In this document: in pieces, positions 7,104 to 44,278 of the stretch
How the letters are laid out: every line of letters starts with the position of its first letter
Position numbering within the stretch: the first letter of the stretch is position 1
Virus genome (UHGV): UHGV-0132371
From: a virus
Direction: 5' to 3' (one strand)
DNA length: 45,879 nt
Notes under the pieces: generated by a model
Seen by the model: the letters and a program-made list of their open reading frames with translations, nothing else
Told to the model about the DNA's origin: nothing
Database searches by the model: none
Position numbers and translations under genes: made by a program

Positions 7104-7838
7104 TTAAAGTCGATTATATTTAATTGACTCATGAATCAATGCCTTACCCATGACATAAAGCTGATCCTGATTCGCCTCATTGATGTACCACTTTTCATAT
7201 GCAGAGTTATCAGACAGAACAGCGAGCTTGTCACCTTGCATCTGTAGGCGCTTAACATGAAACGTCTTACCGTATACGAAAGAGTAAACACCGTCGGTCT
7301 GGAAGTGACGAACTGAGATGTCGACGAATAGTCGATCACCAGAAACGAGGGTTGGTGACATACTGTCGCCGTTAACAGTCATGACCTTCACATCTTCTGG
7401 ATCGCGATTTCCAAAAAGCACTCGGGCATGTTCAGTCGTGAACTCAATGGCGTACAAGACTTCAACATAGTCAGAAAGCATGTAGGTGCCAGGTCCAGCA
7501 CTGACAGATAAATCCAGAACTTCAACGCGATAAACATCCTGCTCTGGCTTATTAACCATGCGTTTCACTTCCCCTGTATCTGTTGGCTCACCAACACCGT
7601 ATTCCAGCCATTCGGCACGTACACCAAGTACTTTACTGAGAGCCACTATTTTCTGACTGTCCGGTATGGCCTGGGCGTTGAACCACTTCCAAACTCCAGG
7701 TGTAGTGATCTCCACCCCGGCTTTATTAAGCAGGTCTGCAAGGTTTTTGTTTCGTCCCCGACCAGTTAATCCAGCAAGTTGACAAACTTGCAGCAGCCTA
7801 GTCGTGAAACCTTCTTTCGTTTCGTCTCTCTTAACCAT
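7104..7838 (-). CDS. cI: CI-like prophage repressor (N-terminal HTH, C-terminal S24 LexA-type peptidase domain)
   Basis: VNGDSMSPTL serine motif and downstream HVKRL lysine; divergent from a Cro-like gene. Confidence 0.85.
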   Translation of the reverse strand: MVKRDETKEGFTTRLLQVCQLAGLTGRGRNKNLADLLNKAGVEITTPGVWKWFNAQAIPDSQKIVALSKVLGVRAEWLEYGVGEPTDTGEVKRMVNKPEQDVYRVEVLDLSVSAGPGTYMLSDYVEVLYAIEFTTEHARVLFGNRDPEDVKVMTVNGDSMSPTLVSGDRLFVDISVRHFQTDGVYSFVYGKTFHVKRLQMQGDKLAVLSDNSAYEKWYINEANQDQLYVMGKALIHESIKYNRL

Positions 7839-7921
7839 TAGTTAAATATCCGGGAACTTGACTTTGCTGTCAGTTAATATTTATTATTAACTTGTGGTTA
7901 ATTTTGTAATCAGGAGAGTCA
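7839..7921. promoter_or_regulatory. Divergent immunity promoter/operator region (PRM/PR-like)
   Basis: 83 bp AT-rich spacer between divergent cI and cro-like genes containing GTTAATATTTATTATTAAC and TTAACTTGTGGTTAAT dyads. Confidence 0.5.
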
Positions 7922-8170
7922 ATGAACGCTGTAGAAATTGCAGTAGAAGCTGTCGGTGGACAAACAGCAGCCGCAAAAATTTGTGGTTTATCCCCGGTAG
8001 CTGTTCACCGCTGGGTTAAAAACGCCTGTCTTCCTCGTACCGAATACACAAAAAAAACGGAATACGCGGAGTTACTTGCTTCTAAATCAGCAGGTCAGTT
8101 CACTGCTGACTGGTTGCTGGAAAATGCTAATCCTGATCGTCCAGGAAAGGTTAACGATCCATCAGCTTAA
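7922..8170 (+). CDS. cro: Cro-like / YdaS-type HTH regulator
   Basis: 82 aa, AGGAGAG RBS, first gene of the rightward operon; HTH signature GQTAAAKICGLSPVAVHRW. Confidence 0.7.
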   Translation: MNAVEIAVEAVGGQTAAAKICGLSPVAVHRWVKNACLPRTEYTKKTEYAELLASKSAGQFTADWLLENANPDRPGKVNDPSA

Positions 8171-8198: not shown

Positions 8199-8762
8199 GT
8201 GGATAAACAACACTGGAAAGTAGAGCGCCAACCTGCATGGCTGGTGGCTGCAATCAAAAGAACTATTGCCGAAATGCCAGGCGGTTATACAGAAGCTGCT
8301 GAATGGCTTGGCCTGTATCGCGCTGGAAAACTCTCAACGGATGCGCTCTACAACAGACTGCGTAACGAAGGAGATCAAATTTTCCCGCTTGAGTGGGCGA
8401 TGGTGCTTCAGGATGCAAGTGGTACTAAGTATGTCACCGATGCGATAGCCCGCCGTAGTGGTGGCGTCTTCGTTCCGCTGGTGGAGGTTGATGATCTTGA
8501 TAACGGCGATATCAACCAGCGCCTGATGGAGTCCATCGAATGGATTGGTAAACACTCGCAGTACCTGCGTAAGGCAACCGCTGACGGGGTTATTGATCCG
8601 GCAGAACGTGAGCAGATTGAAGAGAACAGCTATCAGGTGATGGCTAAGTGGCAGGAACATTTGACGCTGCTTTTCCGTGTGTTTTGTGCGCCGGAAAAAG
8701 GTGACGCCCGCGAGTGTGCAGCTCCGGGCGTCGTGGCAGACAAATCTTGTATGGAGAAGTAA
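8199..8762 (+). CDS. CII-like / YdaT-YmfL-like putative regulatory protein
   Basis: 187 aa directly after the cro-like gene; GTG start with AGGGGA RBS. Family from memory, uncertain. Confidence 0.45.
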   Translation: MDKQHWKVERQPAWLVAAIKRTIAEMPGGYTEAAEWLGLYRAGKLSTDALYNRLRNEGDQIFPLEWAMVLQDASGTKYVTDAIARRSGGVFVPLVEVDDLDNGDINQRLMESIEWIGKHSQYLRKATADGVIDPAEREQIEENSYQVMAKWQEHLTLLFRVFCAPEKGDARECAAPGVVADKSCMEK

Positions 8763-8934
8763 TCCGCATGACCAGTTTAACGGCTTTTAACCGTTTACCG
8801 CAACTCAGGATGATCCCGGTACCGGGCGCTCCGTTGTTTCGGTATGAACGCAGAATAGCAAACCGCTGGGTGCCATGTAACCACAGTCGGGCGGTCGCAA
8901 TTGTGGGGGTTTACTACAGGAAGGCGAAACGCTT

Positions 8935-9108
8935 ATGCGCGAAGTTAACCGAAGGTTCAAAGACCACAGAGGGATCCCCGTTCGGGTTATCCGGTGGGAG
9001 CCTGAAACGCGGCGTGTTATCTACCTGCGAGCAGGGTATGAGCACGAATGCTTCAGCCCACTTGAGCATTTCAGGCAAAAGTTCAGGGAGATAGAGGATG
9101 AGAGCTAA
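8935..9108 (+). CDS. Small hypothetical protein (57 aa)
   Basis: AGGAAGG RBS before the ATG; the alternative frame starting at 8768 is also open but ends in low-complexity sequence. Confidence 0.3.
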   Translation: MREVNRRFKDHRGIPVRVIRWEPETRRVIYLRAGYEHECFSPLEHFRQKFREIEDES

Positions 9109-9136
9109 CCCAATGAAAAAAAACTTAACTGAGAAT

Positions 9137-9538
9137 TTATCCTGCCAGGGCATTAATCCTCAATTTGATAGCCTTTTCTTCAACTTTGAACCTCTTTTTC
9201 AGGTCTTCGAGTTCTTTGGCGAGAGCAATGTATTGATCCGCAACTCCATATTGAGCAATCAGTCCGGTTGCCAGTTTAGCATCGGCGTTTTCTGGATCAT
9301 CAACATCGATGATTTTTCCATATTTTCCGGTAATAACGGCAATACGGTGCTTGCACATCGTGCCCATTTCACCAGCAATGCAAGTGCATTCTATTTCGAG
9401 GTTACCGCTCTGATCGCTGATGGTTACATCGTAAAAACCATCACCGCTGCTGCTGTTAGCCAAAAGTTGGTAGATCACGTTGTATCTCCTTATTTTTTTG
9501 TAGCGGTTAACGCTCATCCCAACCTCATTATTGATCAT
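9137..9538 (-). CDS. SWIM-type zinc-finger protein, opposite strand within the rightward early region
   Basis: C-x-C-x7-C-x-H (ECTCIAGEMGTMCKH) SWIM signature; AT-rich. The start may instead be the internal Met at 9517, which has GAGG upstream. Confidence 0.5.
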   Translation of the reverse strand: MINNEVGMSVNRYKKIRRYNVIYQLLANSSSGDGFYDVTISDQSGNLEIECTCIAGEMGTMCKHRIAVITGKYGKIIDVDDPENADAKLATGLIAQYGVADQYIALAKELEDLKKRFKVEEKAIKLRINALAG

Positions 9539-9620
9539 GCTTTATTCCAGGTATACACTGTCTCGGCAGCGGCAAAATCCGTTGCCGGGATTGGCGTCCT
9601 GGAATTGATTAAAGAGCACA

Positions 9621-9642
9621 ACCGCGCTCTGGCGGTTTTTTT
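9621..9642 (+). terminator. Possible weak intrinsic terminator (tR1-like)
   Basis: Short ACCGC...GCGGT stem followed by TTTTTTT. Confidence 0.3.
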
Positions 9643-9807
9643 GTGCGAAATGCATTGCTACACCCTGATTATGGTGGGGCGTGCAGGGGCATCGAAAGAT
9701 GCGCCGGCTTCTTTAGTCACCGGTTACGCCAACCCTGCACGTCTCACCACCAATGAGATTGGCGTCTCTTGTGGTGAGTTGTTAAAACTGACTAAAGAGG
9801 CAGCCAT

Positions 9808-10354
9808 CATGGCTACGATCCCAACCCTCGTTCAACCTGAAATTTCCGTAATTAACGGTCAGGCCGTTACCTCCTCTCTGGCTATTGCCGACTTCTTCAC
9901 TAAGCGTCACGATGACGTACTGAAAAAAATCCGCGCTCTGGAGTGTTCGCTAGAATTCACTGCCCGCAATTTTGCGGTGAGTGAATACACCGACGCTACA
10001 GGCCGCAAACTTCCCTGCTATCAAATCACCCGCGATGGCTTCGCGTTCCTCGCTATGGGCTTCACTGGTAAGCGAGCAGCACAGTTCAAAGAGGCATACA
10101 TCACAGCCTTCAACAGGATGGAAAATGCGCTTCACGGGGCAAGTGATAATTTCTGCGCAGCGCACAATGCCCACGTTGTTTACCTCTACATGTCTGAAAT
10201 TCACCGCGTCTGGTTAGAACAACTTTATCCGATGTTGGTTTCTGTTCAGTCTCCGCTAGCTTCATCACTCTACGACTACATCAACGATGGTGTATTCGTT
10301 GCTGGGTTGGTGGACTCGGAACTGAACAAAAAGCACAAGGAGGTGCGAAAGTGA
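9808..10354 (+). CDS. Rha-family phage regulatory protein
   Basis: Start at the ATG with AAAGAGG RBS (track ORF artificially extends upstream to 9098); ING..VTSSL.IADFF.KRHDDVLKKI and YQITRDGF.FLAMGFTG.RAA.FK motifs. Confidence 0.6.
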
Positions 10355-11217
10355 GCACTAAATTAACCGGCTACGTATGGGATGGTTGCGCGGCGTCGGG
10401 CATGAAGTTGTCTAGTGTCGCGATCATGGCTCGCCTCGCTGATTTCAGCAGCGATGAGGGCGTGTGCTGGCCGTCCATTGAAACTATTGCTCGCCAGCTT
10501 GGCGCAGGGCCTAGCACGATCAGAACGGCAATCGCAAAGCTTGAAAAAGATGGCTGGCTCACGCGTACACAGCGCCGTAATGGTAACCGTAATGCGTCGA
10601 ACGTGTACCGCCTGAATGTAGCGAAACTTCAGGCTGCCGCATTTTCTCAACTGTCAGATTCTGACACGTCAAAATCTGACGCATCAAAATTTGACGCCTC
10701 AAAAACTGACCCGTCGAAATCCGTCAAAAACGGCGGTTTTGACCCGTCAGAATCTGGCGGGGATCCGTCAGTAAAATCAAAACAAGATCCACAAGTAACT
10801 TCAAAACCCTCTTGTCCGGTTGCTGCGCAACCAGACCCTGAGGTTGTGATTACTGATCAGGCCAGACAGGTCTTGTCTTACCTGAACCAGACAACTGGCT
10901 CACGCTACCAGGTATGCAGTACGTCGCTGGAGAATATTCGCGCCCGTCTTCGGGAACAATTCACGGTTGATGACCTGTGCCTGGTAGTGGATTACAAAAA
11001 TGCCGATTGGCGTGATAGCGAGCAGGCGCAATACCTCCGCCCGGCAACTCTGTTCATTCCAAAAAACTTCCCTGGTTACCTGCAAAGCGCGACCAAATGG
11101 TCCAGTGCTGGCCGGCCTGAACGCGTTAACGGCAAATGGGAGACTAACTCAGCCAGCCGCGCAAACTTCCAGAGTGTTGATTACTCACTGCCAGAAAATT
11201 CGGGGTTCCGTTCATGA
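10351..11217 (+). CDS. Replication initiation protein (N-terminal wHTH, conserved phage C-terminal domain)
   Basis: GTG start with AAGGAGG RBS; O-like position in the operon; iteron array inside the gene. Confidence 0.6.
   Translation: MSTKLTGYVWDGCAASGMKLSSVAIMARLADFSSDEGVCWPSIETIARQLGAGPSTIRTAIAKLEKDGWLTRTQRRNGNRNASNVYRLNVAKLQAAAFSQLSDSDTSKSDASKFDASKTDPSKSVKNGGFDPSESGGDPSVKSKQDPQVTSKPSCPVAAQPDPEVVITDQARQVLSYLNQTTGSRYQVCSTSLENIRARLREQFTVDDLCLVVDYKNADWRDSEQAQYLRPATLFIPKNFPGYLQSATKWSSAGRPERVNGKWETNSASRANFQSVDYSLPENSGFRS
10655..10785. repeat. Iteron array (putative origin of replication) inside the replication gene
   Basis: Six or seven tandem copies of a roughly 14-15 bp unit TGAC(R)CGTCAAAA, encoding the DSDTSKSDASKFDASKTD segment. 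Confidence 0.55.
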
Positions 11218-11441
11218 TGACCAATAAATATTGCCAGGCGCTGGCGGCACTGCGTAGCAAACCAGCTCACGAATTGAAAGAAGTTGGCGATCAGTGGCGG
11301 ACACCGGATCTGCTTTTTTGGGGGATCAACGCGCTATTTGGTCCATTAGTTCTGAACTTGTTCGCAATATGCGGGGAGAGGCCGCGTGAAACTGGTCCTG
11401 CCTTTTCCTCCGAGCGTGAACACTTACTGGCGCGCCCCTAA
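11214..11441 (+). pseudogene. Possible remnant of a phage N6-adenine methyltransferase (Dam-type N-terminus only)
   Basis: 75 aa ORF whose WRTPD.LF...L...FGP segment resembles the start of phage Dam-type methyltransferases, then degenerates and overlaps the rusA start by 56 nt. Confidence 0.3.
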
Positions 11442-11772
11442 CAAGGGGCCGCTGGCCGGTCGTCACCTCATTAGCGCTGATGGTCGTAAATACCAGAGCG
11501 CTGCCTGCGTGGCGATCATTGAGCAATTACGACGTCTCCCGAAGCCATCGACTGAACTGGCAGCGGTAGAAATCACTCTGTACCCGCCGGATGCGCGCCA
11601 TCGGGATATCGATAATTACAACAAAGCCCTGTTTGACGCGCTGACGCATGCGGGTGTCTGGGAAGACGACAGCCAGATTAAGCGCATGCTGGTGGAATGG
11701 GGGCCAGTGGTGCCGAAAGGAAAGGTTGAAATAACGATCAGCATTTACGAACCGGCGGGTGCAGCCGCCTGA
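11386..11772 (+). CDS. rusA: Holliday junction resolvase RusA
   Basis: GTG start with GGGGAGAGG RBS; LPFPPSVNTYW, DIDNYNKALFDALT and EIT. motifs typical of RusA. Confidence 0.8.
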   Translation: MKLVLPFPPSVNTYWRAPNKGPLAGRHLISADGRKYQSAACVAIIEQLRRLPKPSTELAAVEITLYPPDARHRDIDNYNKALFDALTHAGVWEDDSQIKRMLVEWGPVVPKGKVEITISIYEPAGAAA

Positions 11773-11786
11773 TATGGAGAAATAGC

Positions 11787-12479
11787 ATGAATCAGTTAAC
11801 CGCAAAGGGTGTTGTGACAATGTCCAGCCGTGAAATTGCCAGGCTGGTGCAGAGCAAACATGGTGATGTGAAGCGCTCAGCTGAGCGCCTTGAATCTGCT
11901 GGTATTTTAACCGCGCCGTTGGCGCACACCCCCTACGAACACCCGCAAAATGGGCAAACATACGAGGAGTATTGGTTCAACAAACGTGATTCTCTGGTGA
12001 TCGTTGCCAGGATGTCGCCAGAATTTACCGCCGCCGTTGTCGATCGCTGGCAGGAGCTGGAGAACAGTCAGGCCGTCAGTGTGCCACAAACATTGCCGGA
12101 GGCATTACGCCTCGCGGCTGATCTGGCCGAGCAGAAAGAACAACTCAGCCAGCAGTTAGCCGCTGCTGCACCGAAAGTTGAATTTGTCGATCGGTACTGT
12201 ACTGCCAAAGGCTCAATGTCATTCCGCCAGGTAGCAAAGCTATTGCAGGCTAAAGAAACAGATTTCCGCTTGTTCCTCATTGAGAGCGACATCTTGTACC
12301 GGCTAGGCGGAGTGCTGACACCGCGGCACCAGCATATTGCGGCCGGGCGGTTTGAAGTGAAAACCGGCACTACGAGTGAAACAAACTACGCATTCAGCCA
12401 GGCGCGTTTTACGCCCAAAGGCATCGAGTGGATCGGCGGCCTGTGGACGGCACACATCGCTAAGGGGCATGCCGCGTGA
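11787..12479 (+). CDS. Phage antirepressor (Rha-like N-terminus, KilAC/Ant-type C-terminus)
   Basis: 230 aa, TGGAGAAA RBS; domain pattern from memory. Confidence 0.6.
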   Translation: MNQLTAKGVVTMSSREIARLVQSKHGDVKRSAERLESAGILTAPLAHTPYEHPQNGQTYEEYWFNKRDSLVIVARMSPEFTAAVVDRWQELENSQAVSVPQTLPEALRLAADLAEQKEQLSQQLAAAAPKVEFVDRYCTAKGSMSFRQVAKLLQAKETDFRLFLIESDILYRLGGVLTPRHQHIAAGRFEVKTGTTSETNYAFSQARFTPKGIEWIGGLWTAHIAKGHAA

Positions 12480-13537
12480 GAGGACTGTTTACAGCCGAGA
12501 CTGTTCCGCGCCTGGGGCTTGTGCTGTTAAAGCCAGGTAGCGATCTGATGTCTCTGTTCCAGCAGGGGCGTGTGCTGGTGGAGCCTCAGCCAAAAAGTAT
12601 GGCTGGGCTTCCGTCGGGGCTGGTCCCTGATGCGAGGCAGCCGCTGGCAGAAGATAAATCCCTCGAGGAATTCTTCACCGACGAGAGGGTTATCCGCGCC
12701 GCAGGCGGTTTATCCGCGTTGGACTCATGGTTAGAGCGCAACGTTAAGGAATGCCAGTACCCGCACGCTGACTACCACCATCGCGAGCTGGTAACAATGC
12801 GCCACCCCCCAGGGTCAATGCTGCTCTGCTGGCATTGCGATAACCAGCTGCGCGAGCAGACCACCGCGGCGCTGGCAGAACTGGCCCGGCGAAATCTCAT
12901 CAACTGGCTGATCAATTCGATCCTGTCTGCGCTTGGCTACAACACCGAGCGCGAACTATCCCTCGGTGAATTGTGCTGGTGGGCCGTTTATTCAGGCATT
13001 GCTGATGCAATCACGGAAAGGATGGCCCAGCATGCGCTTCGCTTACCGGATGAGCCGTTTTTATCCGTATATCGAGAAAGTGACATTGTGCCGATGCCCC
13101 CTGCAAAAAGCATTTTGCAGAAGAAGGCCACCCCTGCGGTCACGGCTGCGAAATTAAAGCATGGAGCAAATCAGGAAGTGGCCTATGACCAGCCAAAGGT
13201 TCTGGCTCTGCATGCGGATCCTGAATCCCCTGAATCATTCATGTTGCGTCCAAAACACCGCAGGTGGGTGAATGAGGACTATACCCGGTGGGTTAAAACC
13301 CAGCCCTGTGAAGGTTGCCGGCGGCCAGCGGATGATCCACACCATGTCATTGGTCACGGCATGGGCGGTACCGCCACTAAAGCCCACGATTTGTTCGTGA
13401 TCCCTCTGTGCAGAGAGTGTCACGACAAATTACATGCTGATGTTGCAGCGTTCGAGAAAAAACACGGTACCCAGCTGGAGCTGCTATTCCGGTTTATGAA
13501 TCGAGCGGTGGCGATCGGCGTAATAACAAAAGCGTAA
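12476..13537 (+). CDS. DUF968-type protein with C-terminal HNH-like zinc finger
   Basis: 353 aa; CEGC...HHVIGHG...CRECHDKLH motif. Start uncertain (GTG at 12476 or ATG at 12548). Confidence 0.55.
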   Translation: MRGLFTAETVPRLGLVLLKPGSDLMSLFQQGRVLVEPQPKSMAGLPSGLVPDARQPLAEDKSLEEFFTDERVIRAAGGLSALDSWLERNVKECQYPHADYHHRELVTMRHPPGSMLLCWHCDNQLREQTTAALAELARRNLINWLINSILSALGYNTERELSLGELCWWAVYSGIADAITERMAQHALRLPDEPFLSVYRESDIVPMPPAKSILQKKATPAVTAAKLKHGANQEVAYDQPKVLALHADPESPESFMLRPKHRRWVNEDYTRWVKTQPCEGCRRPADDPHHVIGHGMGGTATKAHDLFVIPLCRECHDKLHADVAAFEKKHGTQLELLFRFMNRAVAIGVITKA

Positions 13538-13558
13538 TTGTATGGAGCGCTGAGCATA

Positions 13559-14251
13559 ATGAATTTACAAGAACTGGAATTTACGCGGATTGAACTGCGC
13601 CGCGCGCTGGCGGATTTATCAGGCTCGACAAAAGGACAGCTGCAGGCGTTCAGTGAGCATCCACCAGCAGATAAGAACAAATACCCCCGGCACCATCCTG
13701 AAATCGTCATGGAGGGTGGGGAAGGTTGTGGATCCAAGGTTGTAAAAACGATGGCCACTCCACTTTATGTTCTTGAGACAAGGAGCCGTCGCCGACCTTT
13801 ACCGCCTATTAAGGATGCGGAGTTCGCTTGTTCAGCATGGCGTCGTTCGGTCAATGGTCTTGGGGAGCATTTGCAGGCATGGGTGCGGTACTGCTATGGG
13901 CATGACCTTGCTTTCCGGTACCAGAGGTTAATGTGCCAGCACGTATGGGAAGAGTTTCAGCGTCAGCATAGCGGCAAAAAAATCCAGGACCGTGTCACTA
14001 AAAAACTGGTAGGGCTTGTCTGGCTGGCGGCGCAAGAAGTTGCTGCCTCGCGTAATAACGATACCTATCAGGAGTATGCTGGTGCAGCTCTGGCGCGCAT
14101 GGTCAGCGTTGAGCGTTCCACCTGGCTCAGAGTGTATTCATGCCACTGGGCGGCTTTCAAAGCGTCGTTTACTGAGATGGACAGCCAGGCACTAAGCGAA
14201 ATTTTGTCACGGTACGAAGAGTACCAAGAACTGAAAGTGGCGGAAATGTGA
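13559..14251 (+). CDS. Q: Late-gene antiterminator Q-like protein
   Basis: Position before the lysis genes; the only ATG start is at 13559 (track begins at a TTG at 13538); family from memory. Confidence 0.55.
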   Translation: MNLQELEFTRIELRRALADLSGSTKGQLQAFSEHPPADKNKYPRHHPEIVMEGGEGCGSKVVKTMATPLYVLETRSRRRPLPPIKDAEFACSAWRRSVNGLGEHLQAWVRYCYGHDLAFRYQRLMCQHVWEEFQRQHSGKKIQDRVTKKLVGLVWLAAQEVAASRNNDTYQEYAGAALARMVSVERSTWLRVYSCHWAAFKASFTEMDSQALSEILSRYEEYQELKVAEM

Positions 14252-14281
14252 GGTAACTTTCACTAACTCCCTCAAATGGGC

Positions 14282-14345
14282 TTGCAAAATGCAACAAAAT
14301 AAGCGATATTTAAAGCTAATTTGATATGTTGCCATGAGTATATAA
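14282..14345 (+). promoter_or_regulatory. Candidate late promoter (PR'-like) and qut region
   Basis: TTGCAA then about 17 nt then GATATT downstream of Q, followed about 50 nt later by a terminator, as in lambda PR'/6S RNA. Confidence 0.35.
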
Positions 14346-14903: not shown

Positions 14904-15803
14904 ATGCCTAATTGGAATCATGTTATGGGCGAGGTTGCAGTCCTCGCCCAAAAAAGCCCCCTAGACACAGTAAGAAGCAAATATATCAAAGAGATGTCGC
15001 AGATGACCGGACGTAACGTCATTGCGTACTACTCGGGGTTCCTTCAGAATAGCTCGCATTTATGTACTATGTCTGATGATGATAAAAATGGATTCATGAC
15101 AGCGGTTCATGGGCTCGATGCCACGAAGGGGCTTGATCTCATTTTGCATACACCTGGTGGGGATATCGCCGCCTTAGAATCGATAGGTTATTACTTGAGA
15201 GCTAAGTTCGGTAACGATATCCGTGCTTTTGTCCCCATGATATCTATGTCAGCAGGGACTATGTTGGCTTGTTGTGCAAAAGAAATCATCATGGGGAAAC
15301 AATCAAATATCGGTCCTTTCGATCCCCAAATAGGTGGCGTGCCAGCACATGGCGTGATTGAAGAAGCGCAGAAGGCTATGCAAGATATTATTAAAAACCC
15401 TGCGACTGCTGCGTATTGGCAATTTACACTGTCTAAACTCAATCCGACGTTCATTGGTGAGTGTGAAAAGGCAATCCAATGGGCAACAACAATTGTCAGT
15501 GAATGGCTAATTACTGGTATGTTTGATGGGGATCCAGATGCCCAGCAAAAGGCTGAAGCTATTTGTTCAAGCCTGAATAACCACAGTTCAACTTTTGCTC
15601 ATGCACGTCATATTCACAGTGATAAAGCTAGCCAAATTGGTTTGAAAATCATACCGATGGAAGCAGATCAGGCATTACAAGATATTGTGTTAACGATACA
15701 TCATAGCTATATGCACACTTTTGGTGGCAGTACAGCAGCCAAGATTATCGAGAACCATGAGGATGGCCGAAGAGTCTGGCATGTCCCTCCTGGAAACGCG
15801 TAA
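14904..15803 (+). CDS. S49/SDH-family ClpP-fold serine peptidase (second copy besides gpC)
   Basis: 299 aa with LILHTPGGDI and MISMSAGTMLACCA motifs typical of ClpP/SppA-fold peptidases; AT-rich; bracketed by terminators. Confidence 0.6.
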   Translation: MPNWNHVMGEVAVLAQKSPLDTVRSKYIKEMSQMTGRNVIAYYSGFLQNSSHLCTMSDDDKNGFMTAVHGLDATKGLDLILHTPGGDIAALESIGYYLRAKFGNDIRAFVPMISMSAGTMLACCAKEIIMGKQSNIGPFDPQIGGVPAHGVIEEAQKAMQDIIKNPATAAYWQFTLSKLNPTFIGECEKAIQWATTIVSEWLITGMFDGDPDAQQKAEAICSSLNNHSSTFAHARHIHSDKASQIGLKIIPMEADQALQDIVLTIHHSYMHTFGGSTAAKIIENHEDGRRVWHVPPGNA

Positions 15804-16021: not shown

Positions 16022-17074
16022 ATGAAAAATACTGTAAATATAAACAGTGTTGAGTTAGTCAACGCTGATAGCCTGCAATACATCGCCACTCTCCCTGATA
16101 ACTCCATTGACCTGATAGTCACGGATCCGCCGTACTTCAAAGTGAAACCAAACGGCTGGGACAACCAATGGAAAGGGGATGATGATTATCTTCGATGGCT
16201 TGATATGTACCTCGCACAATTCTGGCGAGTGCTTAAACCTGCCGGCAGTCTTTATCTTTTCTCCGGTCACCGCCTGTCGGCAGACATTGAGATCATGATG
16301 CGTGAGCGGTTCAACGTCCTGAACCACATCATCTGGGCTAAACCGTCTGGCCGCTGGAATGGCTGTAATAAAGAGAGCCTTCGCTCTTACTTCCCTGCAA
16401 CAGAGCGCATCCTGTTCGCTGAGCATTACCAGGGGCCGTATAAACCAAAGAGCGACGGGTACGCTGAGAAGGGAAGCGAGCTGAAGCAGCATGTAATGAC
16501 TCCCCTAATTTCTTATTTCCGGGATGCACGTGAAGCGCTTGGCATATCCTCAAAACAAATAGCCGATGCGACTGGAAAGAAGAACATGGTGTCTCACTGG
16601 TTCAGCGGTAGCCAGTGGCAATTACCGAATGAATCCGACTACCGGAAACTTCAATCCCTTTTCACGCAGGTAGCCATCGAAAAGCACCAGAACGGCGAAC
16701 TGGCAACACCACACCACCAGCTGGTGGCCCTGTGGCATTCGTTAAATCGCAAGTATTCAGAGCTGCTCGAAGAGTACAAATCGCTTCGGCGGCATTTCTC
16801 TGTTTCCGTATCCGTTCCTTATACCGACGTCTGGACACATAAACCCGTTCAGTTTTACCCAGGTAAACACCCATGCGAAAAACCCGCTGACATGTTGCGG
16901 CAGATCATCAACGCCAGCAGTAAGCCTGGTGATGTGGTGGCTGATTTCTTTATGGGGTCCGGTTCGACCGTGAAAATCGCGCTGGAACTTGGCCGCCAGG
17001 CTATCGGCGTTGAACTCGAGGAAGACAGGTTTAGCCAGACGGTGGAGGAAATAAGGGCGTTAACAGGGGAGTAA
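16022..17074 (+). CDS. Orphan DNA methyltransferase (beta-class N6-adenine/N4-cytosine; DPPY before FxGxG)
   Basis: 350 aa with TDPPY near the N-terminus and DFFMGSGST near the C-terminus; no adjacent restriction endonuclease. Confidence 0.8.
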   Translation: MKNTVNINSVELVNADSLQYIATLPDNSIDLIVTDPPYFKVKPNGWDNQWKGDDDYLRWLDMYLAQFWRVLKPAGSLYLFSGHRLSADIEIMMRERFNVLNHIIWAKPSGRWNGCNKESLRSYFPATERILFAEHYQGPYKPKSDGYAEKGSELKQHVMTPLISYFRDAREALGISSKQIADATGKKNMVSHWFSGSQWQLPNESDYRKLQSLFTQVAIEKHQNGELATPHHQLVALWHSLNRKYSELLEEYKSLRRHFSVSVSVPYTDVWTHKPVQFYPGKHPCEKPADMLRQIINASSKPGDVVADFFMGSGSTVKIALELGRQAIGVELEEDRFSQTVEEIRALTGE

Positions 17075-43309: not shown

Positions 43310-43662
43310 TACCAGCCCTTAGCGAAAAACGCACCACCTTCAAGACCATAATTGCAGTGAGCTATGAAGCCGGTAGTGCTCCAGTTGGTCGCCCCCCACA
43401 TATTCCCGCCCCCGAAACCACCATCGCACACAATTACAATGCCCGGTGTCTGTGTAAATGGAATCGGGAATGAAACATTGGCGGATACAGGCCCGTGTTC
43501 ACCAGGAAAACTAATTCGTCCCCACTGTTCAATTGAACCATCTGGCATTTTTCGCCAGCCTGAACCTGATGCATATGATGACATATCAGGTATCTGATTT
43601 TCCCCTGTTCCCACATTCCGTTTTGCCGCTTCTCCCAAACCAACCTTTTTTATAACCATCAA
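43309..43662 (-). CDS. Alternative tail fibre C-terminal segment (promoterless; expressed after inversion)
   Basis: The frame stays open through the right crossover site and encodes KKVGLGE, matching KNLGLGE at the left site in the expressed gene. Confidence 0.55.
43629..43655. other. Right crossover site of the invertible tail-fibre segment
   Basis: CTTCTCCCAAACCAACCTTTTTTATAA; inverted copy of the left-site core. Confidence 0.55.
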
Positions 43663-43714
43663 AAATCTGGTGATGCTTCGCCGTTTCTCCTGTTTTCATA
43701 ACAGGAGAAATCCC

Positions 43715-44278
43715 ATGATTTACGGTTATGCCCGAGTATCAACAAACCACCAGGACACTGAATTGCAACTAACGGCGCTCAAGTCAGCGGGTTGTGAGAA
43801 AATTTTTGAAGAGCATGCCAGCGGGAGGAAATCGAATCGGCCGGTTCTAAAACGGCTCATCGCCACTATGCAGCCGGGGGATGAACTGGTGGTCTGGAAG
43901 CTGGACAGGATAGGCCGCAACGTTCTGCATGCGCTGTTGATGTTCCAGCAGTTACAGGAAAAGGGTATCAACTTCCGCAGTATTACCGATGGCGTGGATC
44001 TCAAAACAGCCAGCGGCCGCTATAACTTTCGTAACATCCTTTCCGCAGCACAATATGAATCTGATCTTAATAGCGAACGTACCTTAGCAGGGCTGGCCGT
44101 AGCCAGGGCAAAAGGGCGAGTTGGTGGGCGTAGACCGAAGTTTAGCGACGAGCAGTGGCAACAGATGGGAGCGCTCATAGCGGCAGGGAAATCACGGCGT
44201 TATGTTGCACGTATCTATAACGTTGGGCTATCAACCCTATATAAACGATTTCCTGTTACTGGCATTCAAACGAAATAA
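43715..44278 (+). CDS. Serine recombinase, DNA invertase of the Hin/Gin/Pin/Cin family
   Basis: MIYGYARVSTNHQ catalytic N-terminus; C-terminal HTH; AGGAGAAA RBS (track ORF starts upstream at 43670). Confidence 0.85.
   Translation: MIYGYARVSTNHQDTELQLTALKSAGCEKIFEEHASGRKSNRPVLKRLIATMQPGDELVVWKLDRIGRNVLHALLMFQQLQEKGINFRSITDGVDLKTASGRYNFRNILSAAQYESDLNSERTLAGLAVARAKGRVGGRRPKFSDEQWQQMGALIAAGKSRRYVARIYNVGLSTLYKRFPVTGIQTK

Follow-up and report, generated by a model that had tools for sequence, protein, structure and literature searches.

Phage lambda offers the natural comparison for the locus described here. Its initiator protein, O, binds DNA through its N-terminal domain and a partner through its C-terminal domain, with a flexible linker between the two, and the origin, ori-lambda, lies within the O gene itself (nt 349-433 of the 900-nt gene, i.e., 39-48% of its length), downstream of the cro and cII genes and the promoter pR. 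The initiators of iteron plasmids, such as RepA of pSC101, TrfA of RK2, RepE of F and RepA of P1, are winged-helix proteins which act on directly repeated iterons and use DnaB/DnaC of the host with no loader of their own, and their origins lie between genes, usually with DnaA boxes. We analyse here the early-right operon of a lambdoid prophage in UHGV virus genome UHGV-0132371, the whole stretch of 45,879 nucleotides being referred to as the window, and in particular its replication initiator gene (rep), the open reading frame (ORF) of 75 codons that follows, and rusA. We consider it likely that this is a lambdoid replication module, belonging to a temperate phage or prophage of the SfII / phiNP / ST64B (e14-like) type that is common in Citrobacter and E. 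coli, with iterons inside the initiator gene, a Dam remnant and no helicase loader.

The isolated phages SfII, SfIV, ST64B and phiNP have one replication gene each. In these phages, as in the prophage of E. coli Nissle 1917, the single initiator gene is followed by Dam, PerC or RusA genes with no loader, and the initiators share a C-terminal tail with that of the window. The same N-terminal domain and repeats as in the window are found in SfII, SfIV, phiNP and Nissle 1917 (75-91% nucleotide identity), and phiNP and Nissle 1917 also share its C-terminal domain, Phg_2220_C, whereas SfII and SfIV have a lambda-O-like C-terminal domain, and ST64B differs in both its DNA-binding domain and its repeats. 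The module of the window is distinguished from all of these by an internal deletion of the Dam gene and by an extra Ash/Rha block upstream of rep. Compared with the iteron plasmids, the repeats of the window are intragenic, and no sequence relationship to those plasmids was found. Literature searches on initiator-solo modules, Phg_2220_C, replication of SfII or SfIV and a missing helicase loader returned nothing on this phage family. Modules that consist of an initiator alone are reportedly described by Weigel and Seitz (2006).

The initiator gene and its internal repeats

The initiator consists of a winged-helix N-terminal domain (residues ~1-90), a disordered linker encoded by the repeats (~90-155), a helical Phg_2220_C domain (~160-255) and a tail ending in ..VDYSLPENSGFRS. 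Pfam matched HTH_36 (8.4e-12) and Phg_2220_C (1.3e-25; 89.7 bits against a cut-off of 27), the TIGR02220 model scored 74.3 bits (cut-off 66.65), and the PHROG families 'replication initiation protein' and 'replication initiation O-like' matched as well. In AlphaFold2 models the linker, residues 90-155, had a predicted local distance difference test score (pLDDT) below 40 and the C-terminal domain one of about 90, and a model of residues 157-288 gave a confident domain of five to six helices (pLDDT about 90-95). A fold search of BFVD with the C-terminal model returned members of the family together with weak matches named replication initiator or replisome organizer; profile and sequence searches of the PDB with this domain gave no match. 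The protein is 98-99% identical to 288-residue proteins of Citrobacter and E. coli, and its closest relatives are chiefly proteins of the Citrobacter freundii complex, alongside some of E. coli and Salmonella. In existing annotation, the labels 'conserved phage C-terminal domain-containing protein' and 'GntR family regulator' hide a replication initiator with a putative internal origin.

This layout of DNA-binding domain, linker and C-terminal domain, downstream of cro/cII-like genes and a pR-like promoter, is the layout of lambda O, but the two proteins show no detectable sequence similarity (BLASTP E 0.62), and the domain found here is HTH_36, with no Pfam match to Phage_rep_O. The initiator starts with GTG, which overlaps the Rha stop codon (GTGA), and in relatives that do not have the Rha block the start codon is ATG, which suggests that translation of the initiator is coupled to the inserted gene.

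An earlier note on this DNA, made from the letters alone, had counted six or seven iterons within the initiator gene. The count was fair, with four tandem units, one inverted copy and two half-sites being found (Table 1). At 10660-10721, Tandem Repeats Finder reported 4.1 copies with a period of 15 bp (consensus TCTGACGCGTCAAAA). When up to one mismatch was allowed, the motif TGACNCNTCAAAA occurred seven times in the 45.9-kb window against 1.21 expected, with six of the seven within 10662-10752, where the matches at 10737 (minus) and 10740 (plus) are one palindromic site counted on both strands. The motif proposed earlier, TGAC(R)CGTCAAAA, was too strict, the core being TGAC-N3-(G/T)CA followed by AAAA. 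Allowing for the variation among units it reads TGAC-N3-(G/T)C(A/G) and is partly palindromic, and an inverted-repeat search returned TGAC-N3-GTCA as a dyad.

The block of repeats occupies nt 310-421 of the 867-nt gene, so that at least four dyad-symmetric iterons lie at 36-48% of its length, and the likeness in position to ori within lambda O that had been pointed out earlier is borne out. Lambda iterons, however, are about 19 bp long and separated by spacers, whereas the units here are 15 bp and head-to-tail. They are in frame and encode (S/F/T)D(T/A/P)SK in the linker that is predicted to be disordered. Just 3' of the iterons, at 10760-10820, the composition profile drops to a GC content of 0.40-0.43, against ~0.53 for the gene. 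Two GATC sites (10762 and 10786) lie within a 22-nt direct repeat in the stretch 10762-10808, which is a candidate unwinding region.

Comparison across relatives provides the evidence that the repeats are constrained as DNA. Among 80 distinct rep genes, the Ser codon within the xDxSx units was TCA in 428 of 466 cases (92%), against 463 of 2381 (19%) elsewhere in the same genes; the genes are mutually related, which inflates any p-value for this contrast, although the effect size is large. The position matrix of the unit across these genes is TCTGA(C/T)nCnTCAAAA, with a dyad-symmetric core that is invariant at G4, A5, T10 and C11. The same N-terminal winged-helix domain was accompanied by the same repeats in MB06232, Nissle 1917, phiNP, SfII and SfIV, with the register 312 nt into rep, while initiators with other N-terminal domains, i.e., ST64B, several representative proteins and other subfamilies, had other repeats at the same place. 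Copy number differed among the relatives, e.g., the Nissle 1917 gene (NZ_CP058217.1 2183497-2186077; 293-residue initiator) has one additional 15-bp unit in the tandem array, and the motif was absent from the remainder of their 10-12-kb loci. Because of the TCA preference, the inverted copy and the co-variation with the DNA-binding domain, we conclude that the repeats are constrained as DNA and not as peptide alone, and their anatomy and comparison point to iterons.

SfII and SfIV match the window over nt 2-486 only (~82% identity), which comprises the DNA-binding domain and the iterons, and past nt 486 they carry a C-terminal domain with homology to the one in lambda O (BLASTP 7e-26). This mosaic joint just past the iterons suggests that the DNA-binding domain and the iterons form one exchangeable unit, as in the classic lambdoid phages.

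Helicase loading and the C-terminal tail

When the early-left and early-right ORFs of the window were scanned with Pfam and PHROG, no helicase or loader was found. The scans returned instead an exonuclease, nucleotide hydrolases, RdgC and a ClpX-type zinc-finger protein, besides several proteins of unknown function, and the only sizeable ORF with a Walker-A motif in the six frames of the window is a Hin-type invertase. The earlier statement that no P/DnaC/DnaB-like gene follows the initiator thus held in the Pfam, PHROG and Walker-A scans of the window, and lambda differs in this respect by its P gene. We then considered 80 IMG/VR loci with the same type of initiator (64-99% identity), clustering the ORFs within ~3 kb downstream and scanning 32 representatives. 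These comprised methyltransferases (Dam, D12, C5 and MT-A70), PerC-like proteins, a LexA-like protein of 108 residues, RusA, antirepressors, DUF968 and Q, and none of the 32 matched IstB/DnaC, DnaB or lambda P or contained a Walker-A motif. In ~150 SfII-like loci there was likewise no loader or helicase next to the initiator.

Relatives in which the Dam gene is intact (Nissle 1917, MB06232 and Citrobacter contigs) have the order rep, Dam, RusA, Ant, DUF968 and Q, again without a loader, and the complete record of phiNP lists no helicase or loader. This phage forms plaques on E. coli K-12 at 1e6-1e8 plaque-forming units/ml (PMC6456863). Since a loader is missing from the intact relatives, from the isolated phages and from about 160 IMG/VR loci, its absence is the normal, ancestral state of this phage family. 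Two candidates were set aside, i.e., the 'AAA family ATPase' of phiNP, which was rejected as a loader, being AAA_15/AAA_21 and defence-like, and YdaU/YdaV of the Rac prophage, dropped as a loader-containing relative, where YdaU is a DUF1376 protein of a different family.

A likeness to the DnaD and SPP1 G38P/G39P proteins was also considered. PHROG families with the name 'DnaD-like helicase loader' match the window protein in its N-terminal winged helix only (phrog_186, residues 22-112), whereas the match reaches the C-terminal part in phiNP and ST64B (phrog_1701), and the match of Pfam DnaD_N to the winged-helix domain of the window is sub-threshold. Superposition of the C-terminal model gave 2.5-2.8 A over 60-63 residues, both with a DnaD domain (2i5u) and with G39P (1no1), and the 'DnaD-like' label was not confirmed.

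Nearly all of these initiators end in ..[DY]S.[IV]P.GF[RK][GS], the copy in the window being the last 12 codons of rep (11179-11214). The tail occurs with at least three unrelated C-terminal domains (Phg_2220_C, lambda-O-like and the ST64B type) and in representatives of <40% identity, and it is kept where the next ORF begins 300-550 nt downstream and thus cannot be put down to translational coupling. Lambda O, in contrast to the ..GFRS of the window, ends in ..NTDWIYGVDL, and together with the initiators upstream of all 79 of 79 IMG/VR homologues of lambda P it has the ending DLTNTDWIYGV(D/E)L. Among C-terminal domains of the lambda-O type, the ..IPAGFRG endings (~150 loci) are not followed by P, and the C-terminal domain of the P-linked initiators shows homology to the SfII domain as far as the ..KLR(D/E)KW.. 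helix. This contrast would fit a tail that determines the partner to be recruited, be it phage P or a host protein.

We tentatively suggest, as a possibility that we rate as well below even, that the tail may be a portable docking motif with which a loader-less initiator captures a host replication protein (DnaB, DnaC or another). If true, the tail would do in loader-less phages what the O tail and P do in lambda. Against this idea, the contrast in tails is essentially one between two clades, so that the correlation is not independent evidence, and initiators with a fourth type of tail (W..IW..GGKAA) are also without a loader. A contrast within the family, i.e., this N-terminal domain with a lambda-like tail (P0129 type), was sought, and the scans gave SfII-like loci only; eight loci with the tail ..DQRPDDERL represent yet another type of initiator, with no P-loop gene downstream. 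The tail is nevertheless a concrete handle on how single-protein modules load the host helicase, for which phiNP or SfII are suitable systems.

The 75-residue open reading frame

The ATG of the 75-residue ORF overlaps the stop codon of rep (ATGA), and its 3' end overlaps rusA by 56 nt. It matched the Dam models PF05869 (26.6 bits; cut-off 28.1) and TIGR01712 (37.3 bits; cut-off 97) below both cut-offs, and only over the first 34-36 positions (2-36 of ~165). When complete E. coli genomes were searched by megablast, the query was split in relatives into two pieces, separated by ~1.1 kb more than they are in the window. Both MB06232 (96.6% identity) and Nissle 1917 (90.8%) have an annotated phage N-6-adenine methyltransferase gene of 1320 bp between the initiator and rusA, and the first 200 residues of the 439-residue product are a full Dam domain (PF05869 1e-41; TIGR01712 202.8 bits). 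Alignment of the window with MB06232, in agreement with the BLAST coordinates, showed a clean gap of 1144 bp with flanks that are 96-97% identical on both sides.

In the intact gene, near-identical 13-nt copies flank the segment that was lost (..TCTGGACTTGTT.. and ..TTCTGAACTTGTT..), as is characteristic of deletions that arise between short direct repeats. Since 1144 is not a multiple of three, ~47-51 native residues are followed by 24 foreign codons, which run through the former stop into rusA. The methyltransferase stop overlaps the GTG of rusA in relatives (GTGA), whereas in the window the remnant ORF crosses the rusA start in another frame, and the catalytic NPPY motif (GNPPYS in the intact protein) falls in the deleted part. 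On these sequence grounds the 75-residue ORF is a remnant of a Dam-family N6-adenine methyltransferase gene overlapping rusA, as the earlier note had suggested, and since it is called in many assemblies, it should carry a pseudogene label.

The note had further proposed a deletion or replacement in the replication module. The deletion is real, but the module was not touched and no loader was lost, as relatives with an intact Dam gene also lack one; alignment with related prophages recovered the full methyltransferase (MB06232 and Nissle 1917) and not the retained helicase loader that had been envisaged. The deletion of the methyltransferase and the absence of a loader are unrelated, and the methyltransferase is dispensable. 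Among relatives the Dam gene encodes 217 residues in SfII, about 293 in phiNP and about 439 in the longest form, and SfIV has none at this place. The C-terminal 240 residues of the 439-residue protein (locus L001 6460-7179) matched no Pfam family or PDB chain, and matched only PHROG families named 'DNA methyltransferase'. The phages phiNP and SfII work without this extension, which, therefore, cannot be an essential loader.

An exact-protein look-up placed the same 75-residue product in many assemblies (129 index blocks). The contigs with the deletion allele that were compared are 97.7-100% identical to the window over 5.4 kb (8901-14300), two of them go over to other Ant, DUF968 and Q modules past 11790, and the Ash/Rha block upstream of rep is present in all five of five, while it is absent from relatives with an intact Dam gene. 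A 35-mer spanning the deletion junction was not found among GTDB species-representative genomes. The divergence of the copies and their different downstream modules indicate that the deletion is an inherited, persisting and recombining allele and not a private lesion. The module is an ordinary member of a well-populated and already sequenced kind of prophage, with near-identical copies in many public enterobacterial assemblies, that of Nissle 1917 included.

Two observations on this gene stand apart. In the probiotic strain Nissle 1917, and in derivatives engineered from it, the module is intact and includes the full 439-residue methyltransferase. At another locus (L084 6858-7235) the same Dam-family gene is truncated independently, leaving 125 residues with homology that stops after ~308 nt, and given this unrelated truncation the Dam-family gene after rep seems to be repeatedly lost.

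Rival readings and the surrounding locus

In the mechanism that we favour, dimers of the initiator winged-helix domain would bind the iterons and assemble into an origin complex within rep, in the manner of lambda O at ori-lambda. Opening would occur in the adjacent, slightly A+T-rich and GATC-containing stretch, aided by rightward transcription from the pR-like promoter, which would cross rep and the origin in a lambda-like manner. The C-terminal domain, the tail (..IPxGFRG) or both may then recruit host DnaB-DnaC directly, or another host loading route, in place of lambda P. Loss of the phage methyltransferase would be neutral for replication, with rep and the iterons intact and the enterobacterial hosts owning a Dam. 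Use of host DnaB/DnaC is plausibly a trait of the family, judged by elimination and by analogy with lambda O and the iteron plasmids. Several points weigh against this reading. The A+T-rich stretch beside the iterons is weak (58-60% A+T); no DnaA box (TTWTNCACA, at most one mismatch) lies within 9650-13113, which leaves the DnaA route of the iteron plasmids unsupported; and no experimental origin mapping for phages of the SfII, phiNP or ST64B type was found in the searchable literature. In addition, direct recruitment of DnaB/DnaC is an argument by elimination, and the small early-left ORFs of unknown function could conceal an unrecognised loading factor.

Two of the alternatives concern the DNA elements themselves. 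The 15-bp repeats might be the mere coding image of a peptide linker, (SDxSK)n, with the origin elsewhere or no autonomous replication. Their reading frame, the S/D/K-rich disordered product, the weak A+T-rich neighbour and the want of a mapped origin would all fit, but we regard this as improbable, since peptide repetition explains neither the dyad core nor the inverted copy, nor the use of TCA for Ser in 92% of units against 19% elsewhere, and the winged-helix subfamilies carry differing repeats at the same place in a layout that is exactly that of lambda. Selection for the 75-residue ORF as a functional small gene is scarcely credible: an identical product in many assemblies, on contigs with differing downstream modules, is what such a gene would show, but the product consists of 47-51 Dam residues and 24 frame-shifted residues that overlap rusA in another frame, it has no NPPY and falls below the cut-off of both Dam models, and copies that differ by 0-2.3% at the DNA level make its recurrence the inheritance of one deletion allele. 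The product that recurs is therefore a conserved deletion allele rather than a conserved intact small gene.

The other two concern the loader. The idea that the stretch between the initiator and rusA formerly contained a helicase-loader gene, whose deletion or replacement crippled the module, draws on a real deletion of 1144 bp directly downstream of rep, the very position at which lambda-type modules have P. We judge it very improbable because the deleted DNA is wholly explained by the 439-residue Dam-family gene of the relatives; the 240 residues beyond the Dam domain have no Pfam or PDB match and are absent from the shorter Dam genes of phiNP and SfII, SfIV has no Dam gene there, and no intact relative has a loader. 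A different possibility leaves the module intact and has the helicase loaded by host restart (PriA/PriB/DnaT/DnaC on an R-loop or D-loop at the origin) or has replication depend on recombination. The missing loader, transcription from the pR-like promoter across the origin and the recombination functions of the phage (RdgC, RusA and the exonuclease) are compatible with it, as is the behaviour of phiNP on DH5alpha (recA1), to which it adsorbs normally without forming plaques, while other K-12 strains allow plaques and the authors suspect a block after infection (PMC6456863). DH5alpha, however, differs from the permissive strains in many further markers, and a specific protein partner is suggested by the conservation of the C-terminal domain and of the tail; we consider the restart route unlikely. 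Direct recruitment by the initiator remains our preferred reading, and the broader question, testable with phiNP or SfII, is how the many working temperate phages of this group manage to load the host helicase when each has one replication protein.

Table 1. Features of the replication region and its neighbours in the window, in order of position.
Feature	Position	Strand	Evidence or remark
cI-like repressor	7104-7838	-	
pR-like promoter, TTGACT-18-TATTAT	7858-7887	+	consensus scan; upstream of cro-like gene
cro-like gene	7922-8170		
cII/YmfL-like gene	8199-8762		
DUF4222	8935-9108		
Ash/Rha block	end at 10354		before initiator
replication initiator gene (288 amino acids)	10351-11217	+	
four tandem head-to-tail 15-bp units, TCTGACACGTCAAAA, TCTGACGCATCAAAA, TTTGACGCCTCAAAA, ACTGACCCGTCGAAA	10660-10719	+	Tandem Repeats Finder, repeat search, motif scan
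half-site CCGTCAAAA	10721-10729		distal iteron block
full inverted copy TTTTGACCCGTCAGAA	10737-10752		distal iteron block; inverted-repeat search and motif scan
half-site GATCCGTCAG	10762-10771		distal iteron block
75-residue ORF	11214-11441	+	
deletion junction TTCTGAACTTGTT	11350-11362	+	both BLAST pieces include it
rusA, Holliday-junction resolvase, intact	11386-11772	+	Pfam RusA 3.3e-15
Ant-type antirepressor, then DUF968, then antiterminator Q	downstream of rusA		

The block that precedes rep, ~1.2 kb at 9098-10354 between DUF4222 and rep, is missing from relatives with an intact Dam gene and is annotated in other assemblies as a single Ash+Rha gene of 418 amino acids. A SWIM zinc-finger ORF on the minus strand (9137-9538) runs antisense to the first ~150 codons of this call, and at 9620-9644 there is a terminator-like hairpin that has a T-run; the true start of the Ash/Rha gene is probably near 9650. 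Between Q and the lysis genes, the window carries a cargo-like pair, i.e., a Clp-fold serine protease of the SDH family and a further DNA methyltransferase (14904-15803 and 16022-17074), and the Nissle 1917 prophage has the same pair of protease and methyltransferase at the same position. Towards the other end, a Hin/Gin-type DNA invertase (43598-44278; Resolvase and HTH_7) lies beside oppositely oriented ORFs and downstream of an ORF of 350 amino acids, and the segment 42301-44278 is probably an invertible tail-fibre (host-range) segment.

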